A stretch of DNA of 64,000 nt from Alphaproteobacteria bacterium (GCA_050175015.1 JBFXJJ010000006.1:1-64000), one strand, 5' to 3'; shown: positions 1-53,075, counted from the stretch's first letter. Translations and numbers: made by a program. The notes: a model not told the origin generated them from the sequence alone.

Positions 1-1645
1 TCTTGGCATCGTCTCTGGCATAGCCAACCAGACCGCCAACCGCAGAGCCGCTGCCGTTAACACTGGAAACCGAAAAACTGTCCGAAATCCCTGAGCCGCT
101 GTATAAATAACCTACTAAACCGCCAACATTGCTGCCGCCGTTTACCGTTCCCATAGCGTAACTCGAACTTAATGTCGAGGTGCCATTAACATAGCCTTCC
201 AAACCTCCAACATTAGAATTACCAGTTACTGTTCCTGTGGCGTAACAGGAGGAAACAGAACTTTCACTGTGAGAATACCCAACCAAACCGCCAACATTGT
301 TCTTCGCAGATACGGAAGACGAAGAATAACTATCAGTTATTTTCGATTGAGATCCAACAACTCCAACTAACCCTCCAACATTGTTGCTACCACCTACAAC
401 ATTACCTGTAGAATAGCTGTTCGCGATAGTTGAAGCCTGCGCTACACTAGATACTAATCCTGCTACAGTATCTCCAACAGCAGTAACATTCACACTAGAA
501 GAACTGTTGCTGATTGTTGATTTGCCATCAAGAATAGCAACAAGACCACCTGCAATACTATCTGTATAAGATGAGATAAGCTGCGGCGATGTAACAGTTC
601 CCGATGAAGAACAATTATATATGGACGTTTTAGCATGAGCATAAGCCGCTAAACTTCCAACAACCCTGCCGCTGCTTATATTAGCATTTTTTAATTTTAC
701 ATTTTGGATGCTTGCGCCAATCGTAATATTAAAAAGCCCCGCCCAACAGCCATAACAATTTACGGTTAAATTTTTAATACTATAATTTTTACCATCAAGA
801 AAACCGGTAAAGCCATTAGAAAAACTCGTTCCTATAGGAGTAAAATTAACTCCGCTGCAATCAATATCATTTGCTAGTTGATAATTACCTGAAAGGTTGT
901 TTCCCATATTTTGTAACTGAGTGCAATTAGAAATCATATTCCAAGACATAGTGCTGCAAAAAGCAGGATATGAAACACTTTCTCTAATGCACCACAAACT
1001 ATTAGCAAAATCCCAGCCCTCAAAAGTGGCTTGCTTTTTCATTTCTGCGGTGGTTTTGCCCTCTCCTAAGGCCGAGGTCGTCTGTCCAGATGTTTCGGTG
1101 TCCCAATAACTATGAACAGCTGTAGAATTTGTTGCGCTTCCGACTAATCCCCCCACAGAAAAACTATCTCCTGAAATTGATGCCGAAGAATAACAATTAG
1201 TGATTACTGAATTATTTGCTGTGTTAGCAAAGGCTGCTGCATTTAAGGCTGCACTTATGTTTCCAGAAATATAGCAATTTGAAATATTGGTGTTCAAGAT
1301 TGAAGACGCTATGCTAGCCGCACCGTTTAGCCCTTTAACCGTAATATTGATAAAGGCTATATTTTTTATAGTAGCACCGTCTGCGACATTAAAAAGTCCA
1401 GTTTGCCAATGTATCATATTGTTTATGGTTAAATTAATGATTCTGTGATTTCTACCATCAAGAATACCCGTAAATGGATTAAATTCATCACCTATAGATA
1501 TATAGCCTGCCCCATTGTTCCAACTTGCTGAAGCGCTGCAATCAATATCATTTGCCAGATAATAATTGCCAGCTAGATTACTACTCATAGCTTGCAGTCC
1601 TGCGCAGGTTGTAATGGCTGTTTGAGCATAACCGTATCTAGGATA
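1..1645 (-). CDS. GLUG-motif (VGGLVG repeat) surface protein 1; leaderless body, runs off the window start; missed by the ORF track
   Basis: Manual translation from 1645 gives YPRYGYAQTAITTCAGLQAMSSNLAGNYYLANDIDCSASASWNNGAG...YWDTETSGQTTSALGEGKTTAEMKKQATFEGWDF..., then a second module (ISNCTQLQNMGNNLSGNYQLANDIDCS). The window start reads VGGLVGYARDDAK in the same frame. In-frame TGA at 1651-1649; first in-frame ATG (1588) lies inside the mature domain. Confidence 0.9.
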
Positions 1646-1646
1646 T
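1628..1646. repeat. Switch 1 gene-proximal inverted repeat / putative recombination core site ATAACC-GTATCTA-GGATAT
   Basis: 18/19 identical to the reverse complement of 2182-2200; imperfect dyad around a 7-bp spacer. Confidence 0.9.
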
Positions 1647-1688
1647 AGTCATATTTCTATCATACTACTTTATAAAAATATACTTATA

Positions 1689-1924
1689 AATCATATAGTT
1701 ATAAAAAAAAGCTGTTTGTTAAAAAGAGATAACAATTTAAAAAAATATAAAAATGATGCCTATTAGTTACCCGTACAAACAATATAATAATTAAAATAAT
1801 TATTATTTATCAATATGTTATATGATAAATTTAAAATAATAACAAGAAAATACAATATAATTTAGTTACCCATAAGCTACCCAATTATTTTAACCTAAAA
1901 AAACTATTTATTTTCAATACATTA
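1689..1924. promoter_or_regulatory. Array of 3 IHF-like sites (1689-1701, 1808-1820, 1912-1924) alternating with 2 GGGTARC-like box pairs (1755-1772, 1865-1882)
   Basis: TATCAATATGTTA matches the IHF consensus WATCAANNNNTTR exactly; the other two sites have 1 mismatch; spacing is conserved with switch 2. Confidence 0.7.
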
Positions 1925-2050
1925 TTTAGACTAACAAACGTCAATTTTGCAAGATGATACCAACAACAAAAATGTTAACAAAAAGAAACATTTGCGACAG
2001 CTGCAAATATGGTTTTTTATTTCTTATGATATTAAATAAAAAAAATACGC

Positions 2051-2079
2051 TTGCTTACAGCTTAAAACTGTTGCAAACT
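2051..2079 (+). promoter_or_regulatory. Candidate sigma70 promoter inside switch 1 (TTGCTT-N17-CAAACT)
   Basis: Starts 78 nt before the leader ATG; the switch 2 candidate starts 79 nt before its ATG. Confidence 0.4.
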
Positions 2080-2128
2080 GTAGATAAAAAAAGATTACTA
2101 AAAATATTTTTTACGAAAGGGCAAGAAA

Positions 2129-2212
2129 ATGTTTAATAGAATTAAATTATCATACTTGCTGCTTTTGATATTAACCTTATCATATCCTAGATACAGTTAT
2201 CTTTTATTGTAA
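2129..2212 (+). CDS. Signal-peptide exon of switch 1 (MFNRIKLSYLLLLILTLSYPRYSYLLL*)
   Basis: RBS block GAAAGGGCAAGA at 2115-2126; basic n-region plus hydrophobic h-region; crosses the repeat in the YPRY frame. Confidence 0.85.
   Translation: MFNRIKLSYLLLLILTLSYPRYSYLLL
2182..2200. repeat. Switch 1 distal inverted repeat ATATCC-TAGATAC-AGTTAT
   Basis: Partner of 1628-1646. Confidence 0.9.
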
Positions 2213-2295
2213 CAATATTTAAACAATTATTATATCTCTTGTCATATTTCTTTAAAAAAACTTTAATATATATAAAACACTCTTAATTGTTAGTT

Positions 2296-3408
2296 TTAAT
2301 AATTAGGAAATTTAAACGCCTTTCCTTCATAATTTTTAACAACAAGATATTTCTCTTCTTTTTTTTCAACATTGTCTGGCGATATTACAACTTTGCCCCC
2401 TCCTGGAGTATCAATAGCAAAAGTTGGAACAGCATAACCTGAGGTATGCCCTCTTAAAGAATTTATTATCTCTAGCCCCTTCTCTATTTTACATCTAAAG
2501 GGATAAGAACCTTTTACGGGATCACAAGCAAACAAATAATATGGTTTAACTCTGCACTTTAAAAGCTTATGCATTAGTTCTTTTATAACCTCGGTATCGT
2601 CATTAACCCCCTTCAAAAGCACCGTCTGACTTCCCATAACATTGCCATTGTCAGCTAGCTTGTCACAAGCTTCAACAACCTCAGGAACTAGTTCTAAATA
2701 ATGGCTAAAATGAAGACTGAAAAACAAAGGATTATATTTCTTAAAAATTGCCAGCAAATTGTTTGTTATTCTCATTGGCATTGTGATAACAGCTCTGGTG
2801 CCAATTCTAATAATCTCAACGTGCTTAATGGCTCTAATCCTGCTAAGAATCCAATCCAAATCATCATCTGGCAAAACTAAAGGGTCTCCACCTGAAACCA
2901 AAACATCTCTAATTTCTTGATGTTCTGAGATATAATCTAAAGCTTTCTGCCAGCTTTCTCGATTAGACATATGACGCTGCCCAACAGATCTTGATCTTGT
3001 ACAATAACGACAATACGCGCCGCAATTACTCGTAACCAGAAAAAGAACTCTATCAGGATATTTATGTACAAGCCCTGGTGTCTTCATATCATTTTCTTCG
3101 CCCAAAGGGTCATCTAGCTCTCCCTCAGACAATATATTCTCATAACTATGAGGAATATGGAGTTTTTGTAAAACAGCATTTTCTCCGCCATTGTACATAA
3201 CAGCCGCCATAAAAGGTGTCACACCAATAGGAAGCCTTTTATTTTGAGCAAAATTTGAGGCATCATTATCACTAATTGCAAAAATACGCTTAAAATCAGA
3301 AAAACTTTTAATCATATTGGCAAGCTGCCATTGCCAATCAGACCATTGAGCATCATCTATTCTTTGATAGAACGTATTTTTAAATAAATTTATCTTGTCA
3401 GAAATCAT
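2296..3408 (-). CDS. kamA: KamA-family radical SAM protein (lysine 2,3-aminomutase-like)
   Basis: WSDWQWQL, HKYPDRVL, CGAYCRYCTR, SGGDPL, PGGGK motifs. Confidence 0.85.
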   Translation of the reverse strand: MISDKINLFKNTFYQRIDDAQWSDWQWQLANMIKSFSDFKRIFAISDNDASNFAQNKRLPIGVTPFMAAVMYNGGENAVLQKLHIPHSYENILSEGELDDPLGEENDMKTPGLVHKYPDRVLFLVTSNCGAYCRYCTRSRSVGQRHMSNRESWQKALDYISEHQEIRDVLVSGGDPLVLPDDDLDWILSRIRAIKHVEIIRIGTRAVITMPMRITNNLLAIFKKYNPLFFSLHFSHYLELVPEVVEACDKLADNGNVMGSQTVLLKGVNDDTEVIKELMHKLLKCRVKPYYLFACDPVKGSYPFRCKIEKGLEIINSLRGHTSGYAVPTFAIDTPGGGKVVISPDNVEKKEEKYLVVKNYEGKAFKFPNY

Positions 3409-3458
3409 AGGATTTAATCTTCTTATTTTTTATATTTTGATAGATTAAGAATGGAAAC

Positions 3459-3932
3459 TTATGGAACATCATTATTTTGAGATGGGGCATTAATATCTGT
3501 TTGATTGGAAGTTTCATTATTTAGAACATCTTCACCTAACACGCTATATAGCATATCTATAAAATCAAACTCTTCTTCGTCATTTTCAGATTTTGTTTCA
3601 TCTGATATTTTTAGTAATTCTTCAACATCATATATTGTTATTTCTGATTTGTTTTTGTACTCATCTATGACCTCAAGAAGTTTATTTGCTTTATTATCAC
3701 CTGCTTCATTATCTTGATTTGGTAAACTTTTAGCTAATGTCAGTTCTTTTTCAGAAGATTGTTTTGAAAATTCTGATGAGTTGCTTTTGGGCATGCCATT
3801 TAATAAAGAAGAATTATTTTCGTTTTGCTCCTTTGAGGTTAACTGACCAGCAACAACAGCAAAAGCGGTTATAAGAAACATAAATAATATTATAAAATAT
3901 TTATATATTTTAAATTGTTTCATACTAACCAT
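3459..3932 (-). CDS. Hypothetical exported acidic protein
   Basis: N-terminal hydrophobic segment; 157-aa ORF co-oriented with its neighbours. Confidence 0.6.
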   Translation of the reverse strand: MVSMKQFKIYKYFIILFMFLITAFAVVAGQLTSKEQNENNSSLLNGMPKSNSSEFSKQSSEKELTLAKSLPNQDNEAGDNKANKLLEVIDEYKNKSEITIYDVEELLKISDETKSENDEEEFDFIDMLYSVLGEDVLNNETSNQTDINAPSQNNDVP

Positions 3933-3950
3933 TCCACATAAATAATTTTT

Positions 3951-4916
3951 TTAGTTGACCATCTCAGCAATCTTTTTAGCAATTTCATTTGCAGGATTAG
4001 CATAAACTTTTTTAGTAAAAAAAGCATCACTATTATCATTTAACATTTGGGCATATCCTTTTTCACATAATTCCTTGTGAAGCCTTTGATGCTTAGGAGC
4101 CGCAAAATCATCAGGAGCATAAATGTATACTGGCACATCAATAGAACATGCTTCTGTGCACATTGAAACCGAATCTCCTGTAACTATAATTTTATCTGCA
4201 AGTGCAAGGTAACCAAAGTAAGGATTCTCCGTTTTATCGCTCCATTGATAAATATTTGCAGGAACTCTAATATTTTCTAACAATGCTTTAGTTTGCTCAT
4301 CTCCTGTTCTGCGAGATGTCGTTATTAAAAGAGAGCCATTCTCGGTAATATGATTTGCTTTTTCAGCTAAATCGGCTGCCATCTCAACTGTAAACGGCTT
4401 ATTTTTAGTTTTGCCCCCTACTAACAATACCGTATATGGCCGTGGCAACTCTGAAAAAGACTCTTCCCATTTAAGTTTCTCTTTTTCGAGTCGCATCTTA
4501 TTAATTCTATGAGGAGAACCTGTTATTTTCATTATGTTAGCAGCATCTCTTATTCCATCATGGTTGGGAACAACTATTAAATCAAAATCGGAATTTTTCC
4601 ATAATCCAGGATACATTATCTGCACCAAAACCGTTTTTTTAGATGATTGCTTTTTAATATATCTTGCAAGGTTAGAACTACGTCTTCCCGCAGAAATAAC
4701 CACATCAGGCCAAGGTTCTTTTATATCTTTGAGCCCACTCTTGTTAACCCCCAAGGTTGTAGCTCCTATAATAAAATTAGGAAGCTTAATCAATGAGTTA
4801 TAAGTAATATTGATTACAGAAAAATCCCAGCCAACAGCTTCAGCAACTCCCAGAGCTTGATTAACATTGCCGATTCTATCATCAGCTAATACCCAAATTT
4901 TTTTATTATTGTTCAT
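3951..4916 (-). CDS. ELM1/mitochondrial-fission-family protein (nucleoside-diphosphate-sugar epimerase-like)
   Basis: WPDVVISAGRR, VPNHD, TTSRRT, NPYFGYLA, VTGDSVSM motifs. Confidence 0.85.
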   Translation of the reverse strand: MNNNKKIWVLADDRIGNVNQALGVAEAVGWDFSVINITYNSLIKLPNFIIGATTLGVNKSGLKDIKEPWPDVVISAGRRSSNLARYIKKQSSKKTVLVQIMYPGLWKNSDFDLIVVPNHDGIRDAANIMKITGSPHRINKMRLEKEKLKWEESFSELPRPYTVLLVGGKTKNKPFTVEMAADLAEKANHITENGSLLITTSRRTGDEQTKALLENIRVPANIYQWSDKTENPYFGYLALADKIIVTGDSVSMCTEACSIDVPVYIYAPDDFAAPKHQRLHKELCEKGYAQMLNDNSDAFFTKKVYANPANEIAKKIAEMVN

Positions 4917-5026
4917 AACGTGTATCCAATTATTTTTTAAACAATATCTTTTATAACACTTTTTAAAATCATATATAAATGATATAAATATAGTAAATAT
5001 TTTATTTATACTTTTAGGAGGTCAAA

Positions 5027-5590: not shown

Positions 5591-5724
5591 GAATTACGTT
5601 TTTATTAAATAGTAATTAACTTTTTATTGAATATAATGATTTGTTTTTAAGATCTATAGGCATAAAAGAATAATTATAAGCCAGATTTTAATTTTGTAAA
5701 ATCCCCAGCAGAAGGAATTGGGAG

Positions 5725-5907: not shown

Positions 5908-5921
5908 TTACTTTTAGTTGC

Positions 5922-5966
5922 ATTACCTTAGAAAACTCTGATTATATTAGAGTTTTCTGGGGTAAT
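5922..5966 (+). terminator. Stem-loop, probable terminator
   Basis: ATTACCTTAGAAAACTCT...AGAGTTTTCTGGGGTAAT inverted repeat. Confidence 0.6.
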
Positions 5967-25151: not shown

Positions 25152-28100
25152 TTAGTTTTCAAAACGCCCTAAAGCTTTGGAAAGTGTGAGGTAGAGTTTT
25201 CCTGAATCTGAGCTTGAAATAAATGCAATCAAAACATCTGACCTCTCACTTGAACGAGCTCTAGCTATCAAGGTATCAAATTCGGCAATGAATCTTGTTA
25301 TGTATCCTCTAAATTCAGAATCTTCTTCAAACTGCTCTTTTATTGCTGAAATTTGGCTCTTTGTCATCGCTCTATTCAGATGCCTCATAAAGACAGCGTG
25401 ATCTCCCGCATAATACTTTTTCCAAAGCTCATCTTCAGCATCAGGCTCGAATATACGAGTAATATCAACAGCCAAAGACTGCAACCTCTCATTAATAAAG
25501 CTGGCATCTTTTAAGAATTTATCCGTGGTACCTTCAGCCTGCTTTTTCTCAATTTCTGTAAGTTGTAATTCAGCCTTTTTAGAAGCATCAAGTAAATCTT
25601 TAACCTGTTTAGTAAACGCATCACCCAATTTTAATGATGAATTAGTAACTTTTTCACCTGTTTGATAAAGATTTTCAGCATTATTCTTTAATATACTAAG
25701 CAATGAAGAGAGCTTTTCTAATGCAATATCTGCAGCTTCTGATAAAGCTTCAGACTGTCTCAAGAAAATTTCACCAGAATCACGAACATCTGCCGCAATT
25801 CTTTCAGAATTATTAGCAACCTCTCCTATTGTTGAACGTAATTTATCGCCTGAAACCTCAACTTGAGCCGCACTTCTACTTGCCAAGTCCTCGAATTCCC
25901 TGCCAAGAGTACGTAAAACTTCGCCCAAATTGCGTACTTTTTCAGCGGATTCATCTGAAATTTTATTAAAGTCAAGAGAACGATCACGTAGAGATTGCCC
26001 AAATGCTTTAACAGCCTTCTGCGCTTCCTCTGAAATTCTAATAAGTTGATCACTTTGAGCTGATATGGAATCGCCAACGCTTAATATTCTGCTGGAAGCA
26101 TCGTCCGTGGCTTTAACGATATCATCGTGCTTAGCCCCAAAAACAATGCCCACTTCTTGCAATTTATCAAGAGATAAGGCTGTAACTTCAACCAGGCGGT
26201 CAGCTTTGTTATCAAGAATAGAACCCATCTCTTCTGTTTTTCTAATCATTTCTCCAGCTGTCTTGGTTGCTTCTTCACTTTTTTGCTTCAAGCTCTCACT
26301 AACAGCTTCTAAATCAAAACTAATTCTTGAGGAAGATGATAAAAGATCATTGGTATTAGTTTTAAGAACATCGTTGATGGTCTTAATCCTTGTCATGACA
26401 TCATCTGCCGCATCACTCAAATAACGTGCTTGTTGAGATAGCGACGCTTCTCCAAGTCTAGTCTGCGTTGTAACAACATTGGCAATATCAGCAAGCTCTT
26501 CCGTCTGACGTCCCAAAGTATTTTGAATCATATTAATTTGATTATTAACCTTAGATGCGGCTTGATCTAACGTTTCGATATGCTTGCCAATATCATTGCC
26601 AATAGCGTTAGCCTTATGGGCAACATTATCGCCACAAGCAACAAGATCTGTACATTTGGTTTCAACTATACTGGCAGCGGCAACAGCTTTTTGACTTGCT
26701 GAATCTGTTGATTTATTAAACTCTTCAACCGTTTTGTTAAATACGCCAGATAATTCGAACAATCTTTCTTTAGTATTTTGAGCTGAACTATCAAGTTGTT
26801 TAGTCTGTCTTGCTATGACATCGCCAACTTCAGAAAGCTGCTGAATAGATTTTTCTGAAACATTAACAATATCCTTGGTTTGAACTCCGAGACCTTCTTC
26901 AATAATTTCGATACGAGACAATATCTTATCAGCATCTTGGTCCAGCTGTATTGCTTGATTTCTAAGCGACGATGTAATCTTGCTAGTTTGATTCGACAAT
27001 CTCTCTGAGGCTTCCGACAACATAATTTCTTGCCTTTTAAACAAAATATCAAGGCTTTCAGATCTTTCAGAAAGCGATTGTGCGGCATCACTAATTTGAG
27101 TTACTGATTTATCGGCAGTCGTAGACAATATAACCGCTTGAGTTTCCAAAGTTTTAAGTGTCTGCTCGGCTGTAAGCTGAACATTATCGCTAGATCTTTC
27201 CACGGCGTCATTTTGGCGGTTTAAAATTTCTGATATTTTCTCAACCGTATCCATAATACGATTTCTTGTCTTTTCAAGACGTTCATCCTGCTGAGCCATT
27301 TCCTCACTAAATGTTTTGGCAATGCTCAAAGCTTTTTCCGATGTGTTATCAAAATTGCTAGATTCGCGATGCATAAGCTCTGATGCTTTTTCCGTTTTTT
27401 GCTCAACGACAAGAGCCATATCCATAACTTCTTCCATTTGATTTTTTAACGATTTTACAGAAGATGCAACTTCCTGATCAACCATTGCCGAAGCCTTATA
27501 TAGATCTTCTATCTGCTTCTTCAGCTCGCTTTTTACTTCTTCTATACGGGCAAGAGAAGAACTGATATGGCGCTGTTGCTGGCTTAATGCCGCCTCACCT
27601 ATGCGTGACTGGGAAACAACAACAGATGAAATATCAGATAACTCTTCCGTTTGATTGCGTAAAGAAACTCTAATATTTTCAGCCATTCTTGAAACTTCAT
27701 TGGTTGCTTTAGATAGTGATTCTATTTGCTTAGCAGCCAAATCAGAAACAGAGTTAATCTTTCGATTAACATCGTCAGCAACTTTCATAAAATCTTGACA
27801 TCTAGCTTCAACGAAGTCTCCAGCACCACCAGCTTTAGCTGCCGCACCTTCTGCCGCTGCCGCAAGCTGTCCAGCCCTTCGACCAAAAATATCAGCAACT
27901 GATGCAACCTTAGTTTGAGCGTTCTCAGTGGCTTCAGAAATAGCTTCTGACTGCTGCTGAAAAATATTGCTGACATCTCTAAATCTTTCAAACATTGCTT
28001 GAGAAAACGCCTCTAAATCCCTGATTTGTATCGCTATTCCCTCTTCAACAACTCCAACTTTTGCCAAAGATTTTTCAGTCTGCTGTTCTATTATAATTCC

Positions 28101-29126
28101 CTGTTCACGATAACGATTGGTAATCATATCTGATTGCAAATCCATTTTCTCAATGGTATTGACCAAATATTCTTCCTGATTTTTAAAAATAGATTGAACA
28201 TCATGCAGCTTATTAGAAAGAGAAGTAACTATCTTCTCGGCTGTACCGTAAGAGTTATCTATAACATTTGATAATTCTTTAGTTTTACTTTCTAAAATCT
28301 TAGCAATATAATCTACGTGACCTTTAGATTCCTCACTAACGGTAAGCATTGAGGTGTTTTGCTCTCTGAATATAGCTTGAGCTTTTTCTGCATAGTCTTT
28401 CATTTTATCAGCAACGTCATTTAAAGATGACATATGTTCTTTAATTTCATCACCAAATTTAGAGGCTGAAGATAACGCGGTTTCCGTTGCAGAATCCAAA
28501 GTTCCCACCTGCCAACGTAAAACCTCTGCCGTGTCTTTTGCTTTTTCAGAAGCATTATCAGAAGACTTGATTAAATTTTCAACTTGGCCAGCAAGCTCTT
28601 CAACTGAAACCTTAGTTATATTTTCTAATCTATTGGAAAGGTTATTAAATTCCTCTATTCTTAAGCTGACTTTATCTAATACTTCACTAGCCTTATAATC
28701 AGCTTCACTAAAGGCGCCCAGCATCTCATCTAATTGTTTTTTTACTTCAACCGCAGTGGTTTTATCTATCCCTTTGCCTGAAACTAAAGATAAACCCTCA
28801 ATTTGAGACTGCAACTTTTCCATTCTTTCTCCAACTATATCTTTGTTAGAGTATTGACTTATAATAAGCCAAAGAATCAAAACAGGCATTGCTATGCCTG
28901 CAACAAGTCCGCCAAATTCATGCGGCAGCAGCATCATTATATTTTTCCAACCAACATTAAAAATATAGGTTGCAGAAAGCCCTATCCAAAAACCTGTTAC
29001 CACAACACCTATAATATACGATGTTAAAATATGGTTATTTTGCTCGCCAAACGCAGCATCAATAACATCTTTAGAATCAGAATTTTTATAATTTCTTCTG
29101 CTATTTTGCACCTGAATCTCGGACAT
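25152..29126 (-). CDS. Membrane-anchored coiled-coil protein, TipN/GPR(RgsE)-like polar scaffold
   Basis: 2 N-terminal TM segments, ~1100 aa of helical repeats, C-terminal SLAVDITR...SSDSGKLYLTLSKALGR domain. Confidence 0.7.
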   Translation of the reverse strand: MSEIQVQNSRRNYKNSDSKDVIDAAFGEQNNHILTSYIIGVVVTGFWIGLSATYIFNVGWKNIMMLLPHEFGGLVAGIAMPVLILWLIISQYSNKDIVGERMEKLQSQIEGLSLVSGKGIDKTTAVEVKKQLDEMLGAFSEADYKASEVLDKVSLRIEEFNNLSNRLENITKVSVEELAGQVENLIKSSDNASEKAKDTAEVLRWQVGTLDSATETALSSASKFGDEIKEHMSSLNDVADKMKDYAEKAQAIFREQNTSMLTVSEESKGHVDYIAKILESKTKELSNVIDNSYGTAEKIVTSLSNKLHDVQSIFKNQEEYLVNTIEKMDLQSDMITNRYREQGIIIEQQTEKSLAKVGVVEEGIAIQIRDLEAFSQAMFERFRDVSNIFQQQSEAISEATENAQTKVASVADIFGRRAGQLAAAAEGAAAKAGGAGDFVEARCQDFMKVADDVNRKINSVSDLAAKQIESLSKATNEVSRMAENIRVSLRNQTEELSDISSVVVSQSRIGEAALSQQQRHISSSLARIEEVKSELKKQIEDLYKASAMVDQEVASSVKSLKNQMEEVMDMALVVEQKTEKASELMHRESSNFDNTSEKALSIAKTFSEEMAQQDERLEKTRNRIMDTVEKISEILNRQNDAVERSSDNVQLTAEQTLKTLETQAVILSTTADKSVTQISDAAQSLSERSESLDILFKRQEIMLSEASERLSNQTSKITSSLRNQAIQLDQDADKILSRIEIIEEGLGVQTKDIVNVSEKSIQQLSEVGDVIARQTKQLDSSAQNTKERLFELSGVFNKTVEEFNKSTDSASQKAVAAASIVETKCTDLVACGDNVAHKANAIGNDIGKHIETLDQAASKVNNQINMIQNTLGRQTEELADIANVVTTQTRLGEASLSQQARYLSDAADDVMTRIKTINDVLKTNTNDLLSSSSRISFDLEAVSESLKQKSEEATKTAGEMIRKTEEMGSILDNKADRLVEVTALSLDKLQEVGIVFGAKHDDIVKATDDASSRILSVGDSISAQSDQLIRISEEAQKAVKAFGQSLRDRSLDFNKISDESAEKVRNLGEVLRTLGREFEDLASRSAAQVEVSGDKLRSTIGEVANNSERIAADVRDSGEIFLRQSEALSEAADIALEKLSSLLSILKNNAENLYQTGEKVTNSSLKLGDAFTKQVKDLLDASKKAELQLTEIEKKQAEGTTDKFLKDASFINERLQSLAVDITRIFEPDAEDELWKKYYAGDHAVFMRHLNRAMTKSQISAIKEQFEEDSEFRGYITRFIAEFDTLIARARSSERSDVLIAFISSSDSGKLYLTLSKALGRFEN

Positions 29127-29458: not shown

Positions 29459-29532
29459 TGGGGGATAGTTTAATGGTAGAACAGCGGACTCTGACTCCGT
29501 TAGTCTTGGTTCGAATCCAGGTCCCCCAGCCA
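29459..29532 (+). tRNA. tRNA-Gln(CTG)
   Basis: Cloverleaf: TGGGGGA/TCCCCCA acceptor, CT-CTG-AC loop, TTCGAAT, CCA end. Confidence 0.97.
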
Positions 29533-29615: not shown

Positions 29616-30587
29616 ATGGCAAATATCTTTGAACTTTTATTCAAGCCAAAAGAAGCAGACAGCCCAGATAAACTTGGTCTTTACCCTGAAAGAAATCACG
29701 TTCCTGCTCTTCCTGAACGGCGCTATCTTTTTACATCACGTTATCTTGTAGTGATATCTGTAATTAATGTCTGCATTACAATTATGCTTTCAAGTATTTT
29801 GTTTTATATCCTTCCTCAAAGAAGAATTGTCCCAAAACTGTTAGCTATTGATCACAGGTTTGATATTGTGAGCTTAATTGAACCTGATGAAAGACTTGTC
29901 GATTCTTTAGTATTAGCAACAGAAACTTATATCGCTGAATATATTTATTGGCGTCATTCAATAGTTCCCAATGTTAATGAAATGAATCGCAGGTGGGGAC
30001 CAGCCAGCCTTGTTTTTTGGTATTCTAATCTCAAATTATATCAAGAATTTGAACATACTTTTATGCCCAAAGATCTTGCTATGGCTCAAGAAGATGAAAT
30101 AACAAGAGAGGTTGAAATCAGAATGATTTCAAGAAGATATTATGGCATCTGGCGCGCCGAATTTTTAACCCATGATACCAGCCCTAATTTCAAAGGTACT
30201 AGAACTACTATCTGGAGAGCTTTAATTAATGTTGCCTTTATTAAAAGACCTTATCCAAACCAAGATGAAGCTATGAAAAACCCTCTAGACTTTACCGTTA
30301 TGAGCTATTCTTTATCTTCATTAGGAAGTCCAGATGATACTAAAACTGAAGCCGAAAAAGCAGCCGAAGCCGAGGCTGAAGAAGAAGCCGCTGAAGAAGA
30401 TGAATATTCAGAAGAAGATACGGAAACTGAAGATAGTTATAACAGTGAAGAAGAAGATACTTACAATAATACAACCGAGGAAGAAGAACCTCTTCCTGAA
30501 GAACCACCTGCTCCTCCTCAAAACATTAGCGAAGATGGGAAAAGAATGCTTTTCAAAAGCAACCCCGCTAAAGTCGAAAGACGTTAA
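29616..30587 (+). CDS. VirB8/TrbF-like protein with acidic C-terminal tail
   Basis: Single TM segment, periplasmic domain ending NPLDFTVMSY (VirB8 NPxGF.V..Y-like). Confidence 0.65.
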   Translation: MANIFELLFKPKEADSPDKLGLYPERNHVPALPERRYLFTSRYLVVISVINVCITIMLSSILFYILPQRRIVPKLLAIDHRFDIVSLIEPDERLVDSLVLATETYIAEYIYWRHSIVPNVNEMNRRWGPASLVFWYSNLKLYQEFEHTFMPKDLAMAQEDEITREVEIRMISRRYYGIWRAEFLTHDTSPNFKGTRTTIWRALINVAFIKRPYPNQDEAMKNPLDFTVMSYSLSSLGSPDDTKTEAEKAAEAEAEEEAAEEDEYSEEDTETEDSYNSEEEDTYNNTTEEEEPLPEEPPAPPQNISEDGKRMLFKSNPAKVERR

Positions 30588-43820: not shown

Positions 43821-44117
43821 ATGGAAAACAATACTATTACTAGAGTTGATATCAGTGAAGCAATATATCACGAAGTAGGTCTTTCCCGTAAAGATACTAT
43901 GGATTTATTGGAAATGATTATTGATGAAATTTCTTCAGCCCTATCAAAAGGTGATGAGGTAAAGATTTCTTCATTTGGAACGTTTGCTGTGCGCCAAAAG
44001 AAACAAAGAATTGGCAGAAACCCAAAAACCAAACAAGAAGTTCCTATTACTCCAAGGAAAGTATTGTCTTTTAGAGCTTCTCAGCTTTTAAAAAAACGTA
44101 TCAACGATAATAAATAA
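43821..44117 (+). CDS. ihfA: Integration host factor alpha subunit
   Basis: VKISSFGTF, GRNPKT; conserved synteny. Confidence 0.93.
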   Translation: MENNTITRVDISEAIYHEVGLSRKDTMDLLEMIIDEISSALSKGDEVKISSFGTFAVRQKKQRIGRNPKTKQEVPITPRKVLSFRASQLLKKRINDNK

Positions 44118-44140
44118 TACTCTTGTGGTAAAAAGAAGAG

Positions 44141-46895: not shown

Positions 46896-47660
46896 TTATT
46901 TTTTGCCTTTAGCTTTAGCAATAGCTTCAAGGAATGTATCTTCAGGATAAGCACCTTCAATGAAAGTTTCACCAATGATAATTCCAGGAACGCCGTTACC
47001 GCCTAAAGCTTGGAATAATTTCTGAGCAGCATTAAACATATCTCTAACAGCATCAGATTTCATATCTTTATCAAGACGTTTAACATCATAACCAACACCT
47101 TCAGCAAGTTTCAAAAGGGTTTCTCTGTTAGCATGACCACCATCTTGGAAAATAGCATCGTGTAAAGCTCTTAATTTGCTAGAATCCTGAAGACTTGCAG
47201 CATACATAATTTCAGCAGCTTCGGTTCCACCAAGTGGGTTAAGAGGCTTAAGAATCCATCTTAAAGAAGAATCTTCTTTAGCAAGTTTTTCCATTGTATC
47301 AACATTCTTTTTGCAGAATGGGCATCTGAAATCCATAAATTCAACCATATTTACGGTTCCATTTGGATTAGCAAGAATAACAGCGCCATCTAAACTGTTT
47401 AAAGCGTCTTTATTTTCATTAATAACTTTAGCATGTTCTTCTGGGGATTTAGCTTGTTCTGCAAGGTTTTTTTCTTCTTCTAAAGAAGGCATTCCAAAGA
47501 ATTTTCTCATAGAAGCATCAATAACTTTTGGATTTTCTACTACATAGTTTTCAATAGCTTTATCAAGAGCTGCTTTTCTGGTTGTATAGAAAGGAAGATA
47601 TGCCAGTATTGCAACGACAATAACAGCTAACACTACGTTTTTGTTATTTTTTTCACTCAT
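46896..47660 (-). CDS. DsbA/Com1-family thiol-disulfide oxidoreductase
   Basis: EFMDFRCPFCK, cis-Pro GVP loop. Confidence 0.88.
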   Translation of the reverse strand: MSEKNNKNVVLAVIVVAILAYLPFYTTRKAALDKAIENYVVENPKVIDASMRKFFGMPSLEEEKNLAEQAKSPEEHAKVINENKDALNSLDGAVILANPNGTVNMVEFMDFRCPFCKKNVDTMEKLAKEDSSLRWILKPLNPLGGTEAAEIMYAASLQDSSKLRALHDAIFQDGGHANRETLLKLAEGVGYDVKRLDKDMKSDAVRDMFNAAQKLFQALGGNGVPGIIIGETFIEGAYPEDTFLEAIAKAKGKK

Positions 47661-47685
47661 TAATTTTTCTCCTTAAAATTAAACA

Positions 47686-49035: not shown

Positions 49036-49120
49036 GCAAAAAAATCCTTATATAATGCTTTCATAAGTTTAAACAACTTATACTTTGTTTCTATTAATGG
49101 GAAAAATCAAGTTAAAAGCT

Positions 49121-50515
49121 ATGAAAATGACTTTTTATAATAAAATACTACCAATTTTTTTGGTCTCCGTTTTAATCAGCTCTTGTTCTGGCAATGCTAA
49201 AGTTGCAAGAACAGTTGCTAATCAGCAAACTTTTAGAGGTATTGTCGTTTCAGATGAACCACAAGCTACCATTGTAGGGCAAAATATACTAGCCAATGGC
49301 GGAAGTGCTGGCGATGCAATGGCAGCAATGGGACTTGCGATGTCAGTTACAATGCCTTCCCGTGTAGGTTTAGATGGCAGTGGTTTTTGCCAACTCTATA
49401 ACCCTAAAGAAAAGAATGTCCAAACGCTTGATTTTATTACAAACAATTTAAGTGATTCAACTGTCATCCCTGCTCTTCCAAGAGCCTTATTTGCTATTTA
49501 TGCTAAAGCTGGTAATCTGCGTTGGCCTGAAATTGTTTTTCCTGCAGAAAGCTTAGCTAAGTTTGATATGAAAATTTCAAGAGCTTTTGTTAAAGATTTA
49601 GAAACGTTATATCAAGCAAAAAGCGATACTAAAGACATCTATCTAGCTAGATTAATCAGCCATTTCTCATCAAAAGATGGAGAGCTTTTAAAAGAAGGTA
49701 TGCCTTTTTCTCAAATTGAACTAGCTACAGTTTTAGCTGGAATTAGAAATGCCGGAGCAGGAGATTTTTATAATGGCAATTTTGCTAAAAGATATATTGA
49801 ACAAATTTCCAATTTCCATTCAGGTATTACAGCCGAAAGTTTAGCCAATTATACGCCTATATGGCTGGCATCAAACGGCTTTAAGCTTGGAAATGAAATG
49901 GCTTATTTTCCATCTGACAAATTAACATCTGATTTTGGAAGCACTATTTGGAATCAACTAGTCGGTGATAATAACGACACTTCAAATAATATTTTAAACC
50001 TTTTGAACAACAAAAATGAAGATGTCGCATCTAAAACCAACTATGCTGCCAGTGCAATAGCTGTTGATGAAAGCGGAATGGCTATCGCCTGCACCTTTTC
50101 TATGGGGAAACTCTTTGGCGAACAAAAAATATTGCCAACCCTTGGCATAGTAAAAGCTTCAAAAGCCACTGATTTATTATCAGATATAAATCAATTAGCA
50201 AAAGCATCATCAATGATAATCATCAATGAGAATGTCAACGAATTTCGTTTTATTGGATCAGCCACAGGAGAATCTGCCGTTAGTGATTTACTGAAAACTT
50301 CTTTTTACGCAAACTATCAAAAGAAGAATTTAGAAACAGCGCTTCAGGAAACAGCTGATAACGATACAAGCACTATAAATCTTGTATCATGCAAAGAAGG
50401 CTTGCCTCCCTTCCCTGATACCTGTGAAGCTTTAAACGATATTCGAGCCGATGGCTACTTTAGATTTTCTGGAGTCCCTAAAAAAGGGAAAAGACCAGCT
50501 CCTAGAGAACGGTAA
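49121..50515 (+). CDS. Gamma-glutamyltransferase-like lipoprotein (divergent)
   Basis: Lipobox ISSC; GGSAGDA, GAGDFYNG, AVDESG. Confidence 0.75.
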   Translation: MKMTFYNKILPIFLVSVLISSCSGNAKVARTVANQQTFRGIVVSDEPQATIVGQNILANGGSAGDAMAAMGLAMSVTMPSRVGLDGSGFCQLYNPKEKNVQTLDFITNNLSDSTVIPALPRALFAIYAKAGNLRWPEIVFPAESLAKFDMKISRAFVKDLETLYQAKSDTKDIYLARLISHFSSKDGELLKEGMPFSQIELATVLAGIRNAGAGDFYNGNFAKRYIEQISNFHSGITAESLANYTPIWLASNGFKLGNEMAYFPSDKLTSDFGSTIWNQLVGDNNDTSNNILNLLNNKNEDVASKTNYAASAIAVDESGMAIACTFSMGKLFGEQKILPTLGIVKASKATDLLSDINQLAKASSMIIINENVNEFRFIGSATGESAVSDLLKTSFYANYQKKNLETALQETADNDTSTINLVSCKEGLPPFPDTCEALNDIRADGYFRFSGVPKKGKRPAPRER

Positions 50516-50532
50516 TATTTTTGTGTTTTTTT

Positions 50533-50577
50533 GCTTTCCTATGGTTTAGAAACAGCGTACTTAAGCCTTAGGAAAGC
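50533..50577. terminator. Stem-loop after the ggt-like gene
   Basis: GCTTTCCTA...TAGGAAAGC. Confidence 0.55.
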
Positions 50578-50705
50578 CTTTAAACCATTGACAATAAAAA
50601 ACAAAATACTTTAAATAAAAAAACATTTGTTAAATCATTATAACAATTAAAAAACAATATTTAACAAAAATATGATTTTATATAACATATATAAGAATGA
50701 TAAAC

Positions 50706-50777
50706 CTAACTATAACAAGGATAAGCTATAGTTATAATCGAAAACAGCAGACTTAGAAATATATTTTTATTAAACAT
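50706..50777 (-). CDS. Signal-peptide exon of switch 2 (MFNKNIFLSLLFSIITIAYPCYS*)
   Basis: RBS block GAAAGGGCAAGA (50791-50780) is identical to switch 1; 18 codons precede YPCY in the repeat. Confidence 0.85.
   Translation of the reverse strand: MFNKNIFLSLLFSIITIAYPCYS
50707..50723. repeat. Switch 2 distal inverted repeat TAACT-ATAACAA-GGATA
   Basis: 16/17 identical to the reverse complement of 51258-51274. Confidence 0.88.
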
Positions 50778-50827
50778 AGTCTTGCCCTTTCTAAAATAAA
50801 TCCTAATTTTATTTTCTTATTGTCTCT

Positions 50828-50856
50828 ATTCTGCCTTATTTTAAACGGCGTTGCAA
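50828..50856 (-). promoter_or_regulatory. Candidate sigma70 promoter inside switch 2 (TTGCAA-N17-CAGAAT)
   Basis: Starts 79 nt before the leader ATG. Confidence 0.5.
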
Positions 50857-50980
50857 CAATTAAAAAAATGTCATTAAGCATCGTTTAGAGTATTTTTATC
50901 AAAATTAATTTAAAAGTTACATTTTTTTAACATTTAATTGAACTAATTTTTATGCAAAAAAATATCACCAACAGCTAATA

Positions 50981-51215
50981 TAACACCTTGATTATATTAT
51001 ATTTTATTTCAATATTATTTTAGGGTAACATATGGGTAGCAATAATATGCTAATTTTATAGAATATCTTAAAACATTATTAATATAACTTATTGAATTAA
51101 CATACTTTTTATATAAATACTTTTATTTAATGGGTAACATATAGGTAGCTTTATATAAAAAATATATAATAAAAATCTAAAAAATAAAAAATGTAATATT
51201 TATAACATATTGATT
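50981..51215. promoter_or_regulatory. Array of 3 IHF-like sites (50981-50993, 51085-51097, 51203-51215) alternating with 2 GGGTARC-like box pairs (51023-51040, 51132-51149)
   Basis: Two perfect and one 1-mismatch WATCAANNNNTTR on the minus strand; GGGTAAC-ATAT-RGGTAGC twice. Confidence 0.7.
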
Positions 51216-51257
51216 TTAAATATCTTTTTTATATCTTTTTTTCAATACATTTGAATA

Positions 51258-51274
51258 TATCCTTGTTATGGTTA
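51258..51274. repeat. Switch 2 gene-proximal inverted repeat TATCC-TTGTTAT-GGTTA
   Basis: Partner of 50707-50723. Confidence 0.88.
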
Positions 51275-53075
51275 TAGTCAAACAGCCATCACAACCTGCT
51301 CAGAATTACAGGCGATAAACAACAACTTATCAGGTAGTTACTATCTTGCCAACGATATTGATTGCAGTGCGACATCAAGCTGGAACAGCGGTGCTGGTTT
51401 CGTACCTATCGGAAATGCATCGACCCCATTTGCAGGAACTTTTGATGGTAAGAGTTTAACCATAAAAGGACTATACATAAGCAGAGCGGGAATAAACCAA
51501 ATTGGCTTATTTGGGGAAACTAATAGTGCTACAATAAAAGATGTTACGTTGGATAGTATCAACATCACAGGGGGAAGCCGAACCGGCGGTTTAGTTGGAA
51601 GGACTGGAGGTACAACCTCCATAAAAAACTGTGGCACAAAAGGTTATGTTTATGGGCGTGCCGATTACTGCTGTATCGGAGGACTTGTTGGAGGTGCTTA
51701 CGGCAATTTTACTATTGCTAATAGTTATTCTCACGCAGCTGTCAACACTAATGTTTCTTGGTCTGGTGGGCTGGTTGGAGATCACTATACAGGAAAGATA
51801 ATTAATAGCTATGCCACGGGTTCTGTCGTTGGTTGTTCCGCAAGATGCGGGGGACTATCTGGACAACTTGTGAATAGTGGCTCAATAATAAATAGTTTTT
51901 CAACAGGTTCGCTATCAGGCTGTTCATCTTATTGTGGCGGTTTGTTTGGAATATATTATTCTGGGACATCTTCTGGCAATTATTGGGATTATCAAACATC
52001 AGGAATGGCCACCAGTGCAGGAGGAACAGGCAAAACTACAGCCCAAATGCAAACACAAAGCACTTTTGCAGGCTGGGATTTTGAAAATGATTGGTGTATG
52101 CCGGAAGGTGATTATCCACGGTTAAAATTTGAAGATGCTTGTTCCTTGCCAACTTGTACAGGTTGTGCGGTTTTAAGCGGCAGAGAATGTGTTGCTGGCG
52201 ACAGTTGTTCAGGCGAACACCCAAATTGTGTTGTAACTGATAATGATGGCATTTGTGAATGTTCAGCATCTAGCTGTAATGCGGGACGCAGCTGCTCTAC
52301 TGCGGGAATATGCTCTGACTGTGATAATTCTGAGGGGTGTGGCTCTTGTACTTGTGGAACCTCACAAAAGCCGACAGGAACAGGCGCCTGTATAAATGAC
52401 AGCTCGTGCTGTGTTGGTGAATGCAATATGGCAACTGGTGCTAATTTTTGCAGTTACAGTGATGACTTATGCTCCTCAGGAATAGCGTGCAACCGTTCAA
52501 CATTATCTTGCTGTGCTTCCTCCCTTCCTTATTGGCGAAGCAGCGACTGCAAACCTTGTGCCGCCACTAGTGGTTTGTCTGGAACGTGCCAAACTAAGGG
52601 CATGATGTGCAACTCGAATTATGATTGCGTAAGCTGTTTGGCTAATATGCAATGCACCTGTGATGATGGCTTTGTTTCTGATGGTGCTGGCGGCTGTATC
52701 GAGCCTTTATGCTACACCGACAGTGAATGCGGAACCGATAAATGTATCAATGCTGGAGACTACGACGCTTTCTGCTCAAACTGCAGTTCTATCAATAAGG
52801 TCTGGGTTTCAGGATCTTGCGAAAGCTGTCCAAGTGGTTCGACGTATCATAATGGTATTTGTTTATGCTCTGATGGCAAAATGTGGAATTCTGCAAGCAA
52901 TACCTGCTCTAAAAAAAGCGTAATTTCAAGCCACGGGGTTATTGATACCAAGAGTAAGGCAACCGCCATAACACCAGAGAGCCGCTATGACCGCATTAAG
53001 CGCAAAATGAATCGCATCACGAACAGCGCCTATGCAGGAGTAGCTGATAAAGAAGAATTGGAAGAATTAGAATAA
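51258..53075 (+). CDS. GLUG-motif plus cysteine-rich surface protein 2; leaderless body
   Basis: Frame is open 97 codons upstream of the tracked TTG: YPCYGYSQTAITTCSELQAINNNLSGSYYLANDIDCSATSSWNSGAG...; in-frame TGA at 51252; GGLVG repeats followed by a Cys-rich region. Confidence 0.9.
   Translation, partial: YPCYGYSQTAITTCSELQAINNNLSGSYYLANDIDCSATSSWNSGAGFVPIGNASTPFAGTFDGKSLTIKGLYISRAGINQIGLFGETNSATIKDVTLDSINITGGSRTGGLVGRTGGTTSIKNCGTKGYVYGRADYCCIGGLVGGAYGNFTIANSYSHAAVNTNVSWSGGLVGDHYTGKIINSYATGSVVGCSARCGGLSGQLVNSGSIINSFSTGSLSGCSSYCGGLFGIYYSGTSSGNYWDYQTSGMATSAGGTGKTTAQMQTQSTFAGWDFENDWCMPEGDYPRLKFEDACSLPTCTGCAVLSGRECVAGDSCSGEHPNCVVTDNDGICECSASSCNAGRSCSTAGICSDCDNSEGCGSCTCGTSQKPTGTGACINDSSCCVGECNMATGANFCSYSDDLCSSGIACNRSTLSCCASSLPYWRSSDCKPCAATSGLSGTCQTKGMMCNSNYDCVSCLANMQCTCDDGFVSDGAGGCIEPLCYTDSECGTDKCINAGDYDAFCSNCSSINKVWVSGSCESCPSGSTYHNGICLCSDGKMWNSASNTCSKKSVISSHGVIDTKSKATAITPESRYDRIKRKMNRITNSAYAGVADKEELEELE

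Follow-up and report, generated by a model that had tools for sequence, protein, structure and literature searches.

Leader-bearing cassettes between inverted cores in an uncultured alphaproteobacterium: a probable family of site-specific inversion switches ahead of GLUG and other genes

The fimS element of Escherichia coli, on which FimB and FimE act, is a tyrosine-recombinase ON/OFF switch of a few hundred base pairs that uses IHF as an accessory factor. It is intergenic and carries only a promoter between 9-bp repeats; FimB and FimE, the products of neighbouring genes, are short proteins without an arm-binding domain. In other systems (Mpi of Bacteroides fragilis, which is a serine recombinase, the Tsr-type enzymes and RecV of Clostridioides difficile), one trans-acting recombinase serves many unlinked switches of surface or exported products. 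In the vsa system of Mycoplasma pulmonis, as in the mba locus and UU172 element of Ureaplasma parvum (PMC3047005), site-specific inversion places before a gene body without its own 5' end a segment that supplies the promoter, the RBS and the beginning of the ORF with its signal peptide, and the recombination site lies inside the coding sequence. Partial intergenic or gene-altering inversions with one repeat inside the coding sequence are described in Milman 2023 (PMC9881135) and Chanin 2023 (PMC10028968); the phrase "signal peptide" occurs nowhere in the two main texts, and the Milman screen required repeats of at least 22 bp.

The genome considered here is a metagenome bin of 49 contigs (2.53 Mb, 35% GC) from an uncultured alphaproteobacterium. 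Its lineage is described as free-living and landfill-derived and has no sequenced relatives below class level. We consider it likely that 14 loci of this genome are site-specific inversion switches (invertons) with a leader cassette, and that an integrase encoded on contig C1 is the enzyme most likely to act on them. Two of the loci, A and B, lie in the window, that is, the whole 64,000-nucleotide stretch of DNA that was analysed, and every element of the layout first described for them is present in the sequence:

2..1645, minus strand: GLUG gene body of locus A, lacking both start codon and signal peptide, 548 codons open and exiting through the start of the window and contig; begins YPRYGYAQTAITTC, matches PF07581 and PF05342, with an in-frame TGA at 1649-1651
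1629..1645, minus strand: locus A gene-side core TATCC-TAGATAC-GGTTA, heading the GLUG frame
1757..1772, minus strand: locus A tandem GGGTARC (motif search), gene-nearer copy, a candidate integrase arm-type site
1808..1820, plus strand: locus A site that fits the IHF consensus WATCAANNNNTTR exactly (consensus scan)
1867..1882, minus strand: locus A second tandem GGGTARC (motif search), 110 bp from the first
2051..2079, plus strand: locus A presumed promoter-like boxes TTGCTT-N17-CAAACT on the leader strand, conserved in the alignment and unflagged by a simple promoter scan
2115..2182, plus strand: locus A SD box GAAAGGGCAAGA (2115-2126) and 18-codon signal-peptide exon MFNRIKLSYLLLLILTLS, its ATG corrected to 2129
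2183..2212, plus strand: locus A leader-side core TATCC-TAGATAC-AGTTA (2183-2199; TATCCTAGATACAGTTA) and the 9-codon dead end YPRYSYLLL-stop
43839..44105, plus strand: gene of the HU/IHF family that lies downstream of plsX-fabH and may encode an accessory factor
50706..50723, minus strand: leader-side core of locus B, TATCC-TTGTTAT-AGTTA (50707-50723), with a dead end of 5 codons, YPCYS-stop
50724..50791, minus strand: signal-peptide exon of locus B, 18 codons from the ATG at 50777 (MFNKNIFLSLLFSIITIA), preceded by its SD box (50780-50791)
50828..50856, minus strand: locus B presumed promoter-like boxes TTGCAA-N17-CAGAAT, conserved and likewise unflagged by the simple promoter scan
50981..50993, minus strand: match to the IHF consensus at locus B, 277 bp away from the gene-side core
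51023..51040, plus strand: locus B tandem GGGTARC GGGTAACATATGGGTAGC (motif search)
51132..51149, plus strand: second copy of the tandem motif at locus B, GGGTAACATATAGGTAGC, spaced 109 bp from the other
51203..51215, minus strand: match to the IHF consensus at locus B, 55 bp away from the gene-side core
51258..53075, plus strand: locus B gene-side core TATCC-TTGTTAT-GGTTA (51258-51274) heading a 605-codon GLUG ORF with the conserved C-terminal tail; matches PF07581 Glug and PF05342, with an in-frame TGA at 51252-51254

The window has just two copies of the box GAAAGGGCAAGA-NN-ATGTTTAATA, at 2115-2138 (plus strand) and 50768-50791 (minus strand); 100 shuffles contained none. At both loci the leader joins the core as TAT CCT, in phase with the gene where it exits its own core. 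The bounded DNA, which had been put at about 570 bp, reaches that size with the cores included (568-571 bp), whereas the interiors without cores measure 537 bp at locus A and 534 bp at locus B.

Inverted pairs of TATCC-N7-RGTTA had been predicted across the genome, and a scan found them, each locus having a spacer of its own. The pattern occurs 34 times in the 2.53 Mb, and 22 of these occurrences form 11 inverted pairs with identical spacers, 543-584 bp apart; this pairing is far above chance. With three further loci detected through other motifs, the anticipated genome-wide family comes to 14, both window loci included. Each consists of an AT-rich segment of 526-567 bp between inverted ATATCC-N7-GGTTAT cores, the inverted-repeat pair of an inverton, with core lengths of 13-17 bp across the family. 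The 7-bp spacer is the same within the pair at all 14 loci and different between any two of them, and the base bordering it is often unequal (G towards the gene, either A or G towards the dead end). The closest spacers differ by one base, as do TAACAAT and TAACAAC, so that insulation between loci may be incomplete. The family is not limited to GLUG genes: one switch heads a 1594-aa Cys-rich protein and another a 35-codon ORF.

All 13 complete loci, which are spread over 10 contigs, share one arrangement. An SD, an ATG and an 18-codon leader are present in each segment, the leader joins the core in the gene's frame, and it points away from the gene (OFF), running outward into a dead end of 5-22 codons. 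Each segment thus holds an orientation-dependent expression element, presumably with a promoter. Could such an arrangement have been produced by misassembly or by chimeras of paralogous repeats? The source is a metagenome bin, and 6 of the 12 GLUG genes run off contig ends, but the 13 loci lie within contigs of 9-210 kb with unique housekeeping genes on their flanks, and a contig from a second assembler matches the assembly across two of the switches; we regard the chance of an artefact as close to negligible. This contig, from the Logan collection, covers positions 1810-9000 of L008 in the reference orientation with no differences and contains one switch entire and the other from its gene-side core on. 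It was built from the same reads and is therefore not independent data.

An alignment of 11 cassettes revealed conserved blocks in a fixed order, the remaining DNA being unconserved. The pair of tandem GGGTARC motifs and the IHF-consensus sites occupy fixed positions in every complete cassette. The IHF-consensus matches number 18 in the 13 interiors, against 2.3 +/- 1.5 in 500 shuffles (maximum 7), and all lie on one strand, approximately 55-66, 173-187 and 277-293 bp from the gene core. The core itself is symmetric at 5 of 6 arm positions and, with its 7-bp spacer, falls within the 6-8 bp overlap of core-type sites. The promoter-like boxes are weak matches, and in the simple scan of the window loci promoter-like sites were no commoner than in shuffles.

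The initial interpretation is supported in part: the layout fits a recombinase-driven inversion switch that would provide a start codon and an export signal, probably along with a promoter, and flipping of the cassette probably turns each gene on and off. In the mechanism we propose, a cassette of about 550 bp comprises a promoter-like element, the SD, the ATG, 18 codons for the n and h regions of a Sec signal peptide, and an accessory block in which two tandem GGGTARC pairs are accompanied by up to three sites of IHF type; the core doubles as the code for the signal-peptide c-region, YPxYGY[S/A]. In the assembled OFF state, the leader reads outward into its dead end and the gene has no start. 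Strand exchange within the 7-bp overlap would then flip the cassette, fusing the leader in frame to the mature protein and bringing the promoter along, with cleavage likely after GY[S/A] and before QT.

The genes behind the switches bear on whether inversion is needed at all. All 12 GLUG N-termini in the genome sit behind switches, and none has its own start codon or signal peptide. Their frames are open for 522-902 codons, and dN/dS is 0.12-0.39, with dS above 1 (saturated), in the 20 pairs with finite dS among the 25 listed, 66 having been computed. Judged by these features of sequence, the GLUG genes are alive. Pfam PF07581 bit scores were 69, 33.4, 32.3 and 140.7, compared with a gathering cut-off of 20.5, and the C11:2 protein had no Pfam match. 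If the leaders were instead small divergent genes, the GLUG proteins would have to be made from internal starts, or exported through their C-terminal tail by, for example, a type I-like signal. Some paralogues do have an in-frame Met about 20 codons in (LQAMS), and all complete proteins end in a common tail, ESRYDRIKRKMNRITNSAYAG. However, the gene frames have no SD or start ahead of them and a stop 1-21 codons upstream, and the first in-frame start of locus B comes no earlier than codon 98. This account would also leave the leader frame, the 18-codon length and the identical spacers without explanation. Moreover, distant homologues have a normal signal peptide at exactly the same junction (marked by a slash), ...ALA/QTPITTC or ...ASA/QTMITTC, as does a fixed paralogue at C1:57516-47437, which reads MFNKISILVSF...VSYA/TYCTSH where the switch-controlled C11:2 protein reads ...KGYS/QSCTTH. 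We therefore consider expression without inversion extremely unlikely.

The 14th locus, split across the ends of contigs C21 and C11, has its interior inverted relative to its conserved flank. The dead-end flank and core in C21:1-330 match, in plus orientation, the corresponding flanks of five loci (identity 75-85%, E 3e-28 at best). Its interior aligns in minus orientation to the gene-proximal ends of C10 (E 3e-9) and C11; the partner contig C11 begins at the core. About 440 bp of this locus, including the presumed leader, are absent from the genome, so that the ON state is deduced from one junction. The inversion-switch interpretation gains from the layout, from the family and from this oppositely assembled locus, but not from the Logan contigs (one run, depth of about 15), which contain no strand-change joint across two switches. 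The latter result, and the OFF orientation of all 13 complete loci, would also agree with cassettes that inverted in the past and are now frozen OFF, the genes being silent relics. That reading is very improbable, as the long frames remain open at 35% GC under the dN/dS given above, the cores, leaders and accessory motifs are kept over the same divergence, the spacers agree within all 14 pairs, and one locus has the other orientation. Furthermore, a minority of cells ON per locus would yield a consensus assembly that is OFF everywhere.

An orphan tyrosine recombinase had also been predicted, and one was found at C1:263738-265012 with a sequence link to the switches through GGGTARC. This integrase has 424 aa, with PF13356 (Arm-DNA-bind_3) and PF00589 domains; its neighbours are a xerD-like gene, lptFG, lptD and surA, and the vicinity is free of tRNA and mobility genes. 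Beyond the switches, tandem GGGTARC occurs only 37 and 173 bp upstream of this gene, apart from a few weaker off-pattern matches, and the other P4-type integrases of the genome carry tandem repeats of a different sequence at that place upstream. The motif is found 23 times in this genome and at most three times in each of 400 other Alphaproteobacteria. In 5 of 14 loci retrieved from other Alphaproteobacteria, it stands approximately 10-60 bp from an integrase start. By this motif association, the C1 integrase is the most likely candidate invertase.

The tandem motifs may instead bind a regulator, and the switches could be real but served by another enzyme: a 354-aa integrase, XerC/D, or one encoded on an unbinned contig. 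The genome, a 49-contig metagenome assembly, has 16 tyrosine-recombinase ORFs (one a 92-aa fragment) and no serine recombinases were found in it; one 354-aa integrase lies 3.7 kb from the C21:16224 switch. The link of motif to integrase is an association, and arm-domain identity does not single out C1, whose arm domain resembles that of foreign GGGTAAC-repeat integrases (22-34% identity) no more than it does others. However, the 354-aa integrases (C3, C21) adjoin NikA-like and relaxase genes and so look like those of mobilisable elements, the GGGTARC repeats stand upstream of the C1 integrase only, in the position of the others' repeats, and no recombinase adjoins either window locus among window ORFs of at least 150 aa. 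Another recombinase is accordingly a rather unlikely alternative to the C1 integrase.

Because every locus has an overlap of its own, a single tyrosine recombinase acting in trans could flip all switches with little recombination between loci. Extending this, we tentatively suggest, as a possibility of somewhat less than even weight, that a domesticated phage- or island-type heterobivalent integrase acts as master invertase on attP-like arm/IHF arrays, and that at least 14 dispersed invertons, kept orthogonal by their private 7-bp overlaps, vary the exported repertoire combinatorially or one gene at a time. If so, the genome would amount to a natural collection of mutually orthogonal site pairs that a single recombinase uses.

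Compared with known systems, the loci are not of the fimS/FimBE type, as their cassettes contain coding sequence and no recombinase is adjacent. They would resemble the Mpi, Tsr and RecV systems, if one enzyme serves them all, in having a single recombinase for dispersed switches; those switches, however, flip promoters or 5' UTR elements and share their repeats between loci, whereas here a start codon and signal peptide would be moved and each locus has a private overlap. Like lambda- and P4-type att sites, they have an inverted-arm core with a 7-bp overlap, and their tandem direct repeats, which may be arm-type sites, lie 100-250 bp from it with IHF-consensus matches in between; the candidate enzyme, too, has an Arm-DNA-bind_3 domain. 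Unlike those sites, the two cores are inverted, with no attL/attR direct repeats, so that the outcome would be inversion and not integration or excision; the 550-bp interior has no element genes, the candidate arm sites are confined to one side of the core next to them, whichever that is, and there is no mobile element. The inversions in PMC9881135 and PMC10028968 are, in contrast, mostly shufflon-like domain swaps, and cores of 13-17 bp would be missed at the repeat threshold given in the former. The original prediction came with no known description of the architecture in Alphaproteobacteria; its general principle is already known in Mollicutes (PMC3047005): as in vsa and mba, the cassette holds an RBS, a signal-peptide 5' end and a presumed promoter, and the site lies within coding sequence, the core encoding YPxYGY. 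In those systems the 5' end alternates between productive genes of one locus, while here it would alternate between a gene and a dead end; and here at least 14 genes, dispersed rather than clustered, each have a cassette with arm-type-like and IHF-type motif arrays, in a Gram-negative alphaproteobacterial host. What is new lies in the private ON/OFF cassettes, in their attP-like anatomy and in the spacers peculiar to each locus.

In the window, the box GAAAGGGCAAGA-NN-ATGTTTAATA occurs exactly twice, at 2115-2138 (+) and 50768-50791 (-), and in none of 100 shuffles, marking two putative switch loci, A and B. The original prediction that both share one layout was borne out by sequence reading and frame analysis. 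In each, an AT-rich cassette between inverted cores of the form ATATCC-N7-GGTTAT carries a Shine-Dalgarno (SD) box, an ATG and an 18-codon leader, the signal-peptide exon. We call a switch OFF when the leader faces away from the gene into a dead end, and ON when it is fused in frame to the gene body. The features of both loci are as follows.

1629-1645 (-): locus A gene-side core, in reverse complement, heading a 548-codon GLUG frame
1649-1651: in-frame TGA of locus A
2129 (+): ATG of the locus A leader, 18 codons, MFNRIKLSYLLLLILTLS, which enters TATCCTAGATACAGTTA and stops after 9 codons
2183-2199 (+): locus A leader-side core, TATCCTAGATACAGTTA
50723-50707 (-): locus B leader-side core, TATCCTTGTTATAGTTA
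50777 (-): ATG of the locus B leader, MFNKNIFLSLLFSIITIA, which enters TATCCTTGTTATAGTTA and stops after 5 codons
51252-51254: in-frame TGA of locus B
51258-51274: locus B gene-side core, heading a 605-codon GLUG ORF that ends at 53075

The cassette interiors measure 537 bp (A) and 534 bp (B), the locus A frame passes on the minus strand beyond the contig start, and the GLUG proteins of both loci match PF07581 (Glug) and PF05342. The remaining window is ordinary alphaproteobacterial housekeeping DNA (mipZ, parC, recO, era, rnc, spoT, pheST, thrS, plsX-fabH, flgE, clpB), and its ORFs of 150 aa or more include no recombinase. At 25152-29126 (-) and 29616-30587 (+), a 1324-aa ORF that matches no Pfam family significantly adjoins a VirB8-like gene and a tRNA-Gln (29459-29532). 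Several DsbA-, thioredoxin- and glutaredoxin-like genes, including one for a 678-aa multi-thioredoxin-fold protein, lie at 46896-47660 and 59544-62601 and may be relevant to the folding of the Cys-rich exported family described below.

The two loci belong to a genome-wide family of 14. The source genome comprises 49 contigs (C-numbers below) and 2.53 Mb, at 35% GC and 99.4% completeness; the window corresponds to C6:1-64000. Scanning the genome for TATCC-N7-RGTTA gave 34 sites, 22 of which make up 11 inverted pairs whose interiors measure 526-567 bp and whose spacer is identical within each pair, as the prediction of further inverted pairs across the genome had anticipated. The single sites on C1, C2, C3 and C4 and C5:15866 are consistent with the approximately 10 matches that a hand estimate from the information content of the pattern predicts by chance; C19:30471, with stops in frame, also looks like a chance match. 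Three further loci came from a scan for the internal motif GGGTARC-N4-RGGTA and inspection of single sites.

C4:93717/94272: one-base core variants
C21:16224/16778: gene side consisting of a 35-codon ORF only
C21:110 and C11:2: one locus split over two contig ends

The 13 complete loci share one state, in which the leader points away from the gene into 5-22 dead-end codons. Their gene frames begin at the core, with an upstream stop 1-21 codons away; their leaders are 18 codons long in every case (C23:1833 counted from the ATG aligning with the others) and read into the core as TAT CCT, the gene's own frame. The 14 spacers (TAATTAT, TAGTAAT, TAGATAC, TTGTTAT, TAATAAC, TAACAAT, TAACTAT, TAACAAC, TAGTTAT, TTATTAC, TAAATAC, TAACTAC, TGATAAT and TAATAAA) are all distinct, some by a single base.

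Several members of the family show particular features. The switch at C21:16224-16794 (L010) is complete and OFF, with leader MKNKFKIVNFINMITIKL, spacer TGATAAT and core variant GGTTG, and another gene starts about 200 bp on, at C21:16989; the locus may have a truncated target or be a pure promoter switch. On C10, an exact 17-base copy of the gene-side core, TATCCTAATAACGGTTA, sits 7 kb from the switch (C10:80113-80129; L003:4114-4130), in a 20-bp gap between co-directional genes, overlapping a stop codon and the SD box of the next gene; it could be a chance copy or a secondary site permitting a 7.4-kb inversion. Finally, about 100 bp past the leader-side core are 75-85% identical between the dead-end flanks of C10, C13, C17, C27 and C11 and C21:127-230, so the duplicated unit extends past the cassette, and the flank perhaps serves in termination.

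Evidence on orientation comes from the split locus. The first 330 bases of C21 contain a core with spacer TAATAAA, and the only other core with this spacer lies at position 2 of C11, where it heads a 1594-codon Cys-rich ORF. On the outer side of its core, C21 aligns in the same direction with the dead-end flanks of C10, C13, C17, C27 and C11 (about 105 bp at 75-85% identity, best E 3e-28). On the inner side it aligns in the opposite direction with C10 (E 3e-9, 72% identity over 103 bp) and C11, at their gene-proximal (IHF) ends. This combination indicates that, relative to the conserved flank, the cassette points the opposite way to the other 13, which is the arrangement predicted for the ON state. 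Both contigs break in or at the cassette, as would fit, but does not prove, a mixed population there. We also compared Logan contigs from three runs of one study with a 9-kb stretch (L008:1-9000): X1, a landfill metagenome at depth ~15 that may be the source of the genome, and two companion runs. No strand-change joint was found in these contigs over that stretch, one contig covers 1810-9000 in the reference orientation, and no RNA run containing the stretch is listed. Overall, the interpretation as inversion switches is largely supported in silico, and the loci are predicted to flip.

The 11 canonical cassettes were aligned with the gene to the right, and the order of their conserved blocks is fixed. 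The dead-end flank is followed by the core, the reversed leader exon, the SD box and two conserved boxes (approximately TTGCAA-N17-CAAAAT on the leader strand); after about 100 unconserved bp come an IHF-like site, GGGTAAC-N4-GGGTARC, a second IHF-like site, GGGTAAC-N4-AGGTAnC, a third IHF-like site, the core and the gene. The 13 interiors contain 18 exact matches to WATCAANNNNTTR, versus 2.3 +/- 1.5 in 500 shuffles (maximum 7); all 18 are on one strand and ~55-66, 173-187 and 277-293 bp from the gene core. Three genes of the HU/IHF family are present in the genome, one of them in the window (43839-44105). In the extended core, the arms flanking the 7 bp (ATATCC and ATAACC) show near-dyad symmetry, which is the form expected of a tyrosine-recombinase core site. 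We infer a promoter role for the two conserved boxes; a simple promoter scan, no better here than with shuffles, did not flag them, and in this AT-rich DNA a terminator scan was likewise uninformative.

A tblastn search of the genome with the N-terminal 70 residues found 12 gene starts, all 12 behind switches, and its remaining matches are internal repeats of the module. The 12 GLUG frames stay open for 522-902 codons, half of them passing beyond contig ends. Among the 25 listed of 66 pairwise comparisons, 20 had a finite dS, of 1.1 or higher; their dN/dS ratios span 0.12-0.39 and are rough given saturated dS. In distant GLUG homologues, the same mature N-terminus directly follows a conventional signal peptide, for example ...SQPALA|QTPITTCTELQN and ...TCASA|QTMITTCQELQD. 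In the present genome, a giant paralogue (C1:57516-47437) has its own fixed start, with the signal peptide MFNKISILVSFGITFCAILVSSPNVSYA|TYCTSHFDCG, and the switch-controlled C11:2 protein reads ...YPNKGYS|QSCTTHWECG at the matching place. From these junctions, the core-encoded YPxYGY[S/A] appears to sit at the position of the c-region and cleavage site, and the 18-codon leader would supply the n- and h-regions of the signal peptide. Export of the switch-controlled proteins is a well-supported prediction. The C1 paralogue itself (C1:47437-57516, -) is a Cys-rich protein of ~3360 aa with the family C-terminal tail and no switch. This tail, ...ESRYDRIKRKMNRITNSAYAG..., is common to all complete proteins, GLUG or not, and follows Cys-rich CPSGSTYHNGICLCSDGK... 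in a conserved C-terminal module (window 52803-53072 and the C-termini of the C5, C13, C23, C4 and C11:2 proteins); the tail and module gave no Pfam family and no usable ESM Atlas match.

No serine recombinase was found in the genome, which has 16 tyrosine-recombinase ORFs (one a 92-aa fragment). Two resemble XerC/D; three 354-aa paralogues are 71-80% identical to one another, two of them beside NikA-like and relaxase genes; and several integrases of 387-434 aa have tRNA-like sequence next to them and tandem repeats of their own immediately ahead of the start codon. Such direct repeats (GTAGCCCC, GGTTCCTG or GCGGCAATG) precede the island-type integrases at C10:9317-10483, C4:203513-204787 and C8:64855-66159, and together they appear to represent several different arm-site specificities within this genome. 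The strict tandem GGGTARC motif occurs 27 times, 25 of them in switches, the others being C1:265185 and the off-pattern C3:5276; with a relaxed pattern, C1:265049 and three weak matches also appear. The orphan tyrosine recombinase sought by the original prediction finds a candidate here, by association, for a 424-aa integrase (C1:263738-265012, -) with PF13356 (Arm-DNA-bind_3) and PF00589 domains has the motifs C1:265049 and C1:265185 upstream of it, at 37 and 173 bp. It is flanked by a xerD-like gene on one side and lptFG-lptD-surA-ksgA on the other, with no tRNA or mobility genes near, and its closest paralogue (C4:203513, 57% identity) lies inside a mobilisable element. Identity of the arm domain (22-34%) does not single it out from the other integrases.

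The GGGTARC motif was counted 23 times here, and none of 400 other Alphaproteobacteria has more than 3 copies. In 5 of 14 fetched foreign loci (L020-L033), it lies ~10-60 bp upstream of a P4-type integrase gene. The tandem GGGTAAC repeats of these loci have an 11-bp period, and two foreign genomes have a second copy 17-21 kb away, as attL/attR arms would be, which suggests that tandem GGGTAAC upstream of P4-type integrases is a widespread arm-site type. Given this distribution upstream of integrases, we take the GGGTARC pairs to be candidate arm-type sites and regard the C1 integrase as the likely invertase. In the mechanism we propose, a heterobivalent integrase would bind the arm array and bridge via IHF bends to both cores, and strand exchange inside the 7-bp overlap would invert the cassette. 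Inversion would shift the arm array to the other core, making the reaction symmetric and hence reversible. Recombination between loci would be suppressed by the private overlaps. An assembly that is OFF nearly everywhere, as observed, is what a consensus would give if only a minority of cells had any particular locus ON. The 14 natural core pairs, differing only in the overlap, would be an orthogonal switch set for one recombinase, with a practical use in synthetic memory circuits.

Among the genomes searched, none is closer to this lineage than class level. The gene-side junction pattern was found in none of the 40 nearest genomes (all of the same class only); it had two matches in JGI metagenome contigs, both by chance in unrelated DNA, and one among 185,579 species genomes, a chance match in mutS. 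Among 241 proteins returned by protein searches, none has the leader fused to YPxYGY-QTAI, the ON-form product, and only P0010, from an ENA metagenome contig, shares the junction and looks OFF. If the switches are real, they set an annotation trap: each of the 12 GLUG genes would be annotated as truncated or with a false start, as has happened with the database entries P0007, P0018 and P0082.

Control of many loci by a single recombinase is known in Bacteroides and C. difficile. Gene-overlapping invertons have already been catalogued, in texts whose available parts do not mention signal peptides (PMC9881135, PMC10028968). The screen of Milman required repeats of at least 22 bp (PMC9881135), and inverton finders requiring long repeats would miss the present switches. 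In the literature covered, main texts with few subscription journals, we found no private ON/OFF leader-exon cassettes or per-locus overlaps, no attP-like arm and IHF array in an inverton, no arm-site-dependent invertase and no GLUG phase variation. [quoted passage not shown] If our interpretation is correct, expression-site inversion would extend beyond Mollicutes to many-locus ON/OFF control in an uncultured alphaproteobacterium, with DNA flipping delivering a start codon and an export signal in addition to a promoter, and with arm-binding integrase machinery newly used for inversion in place of integration.
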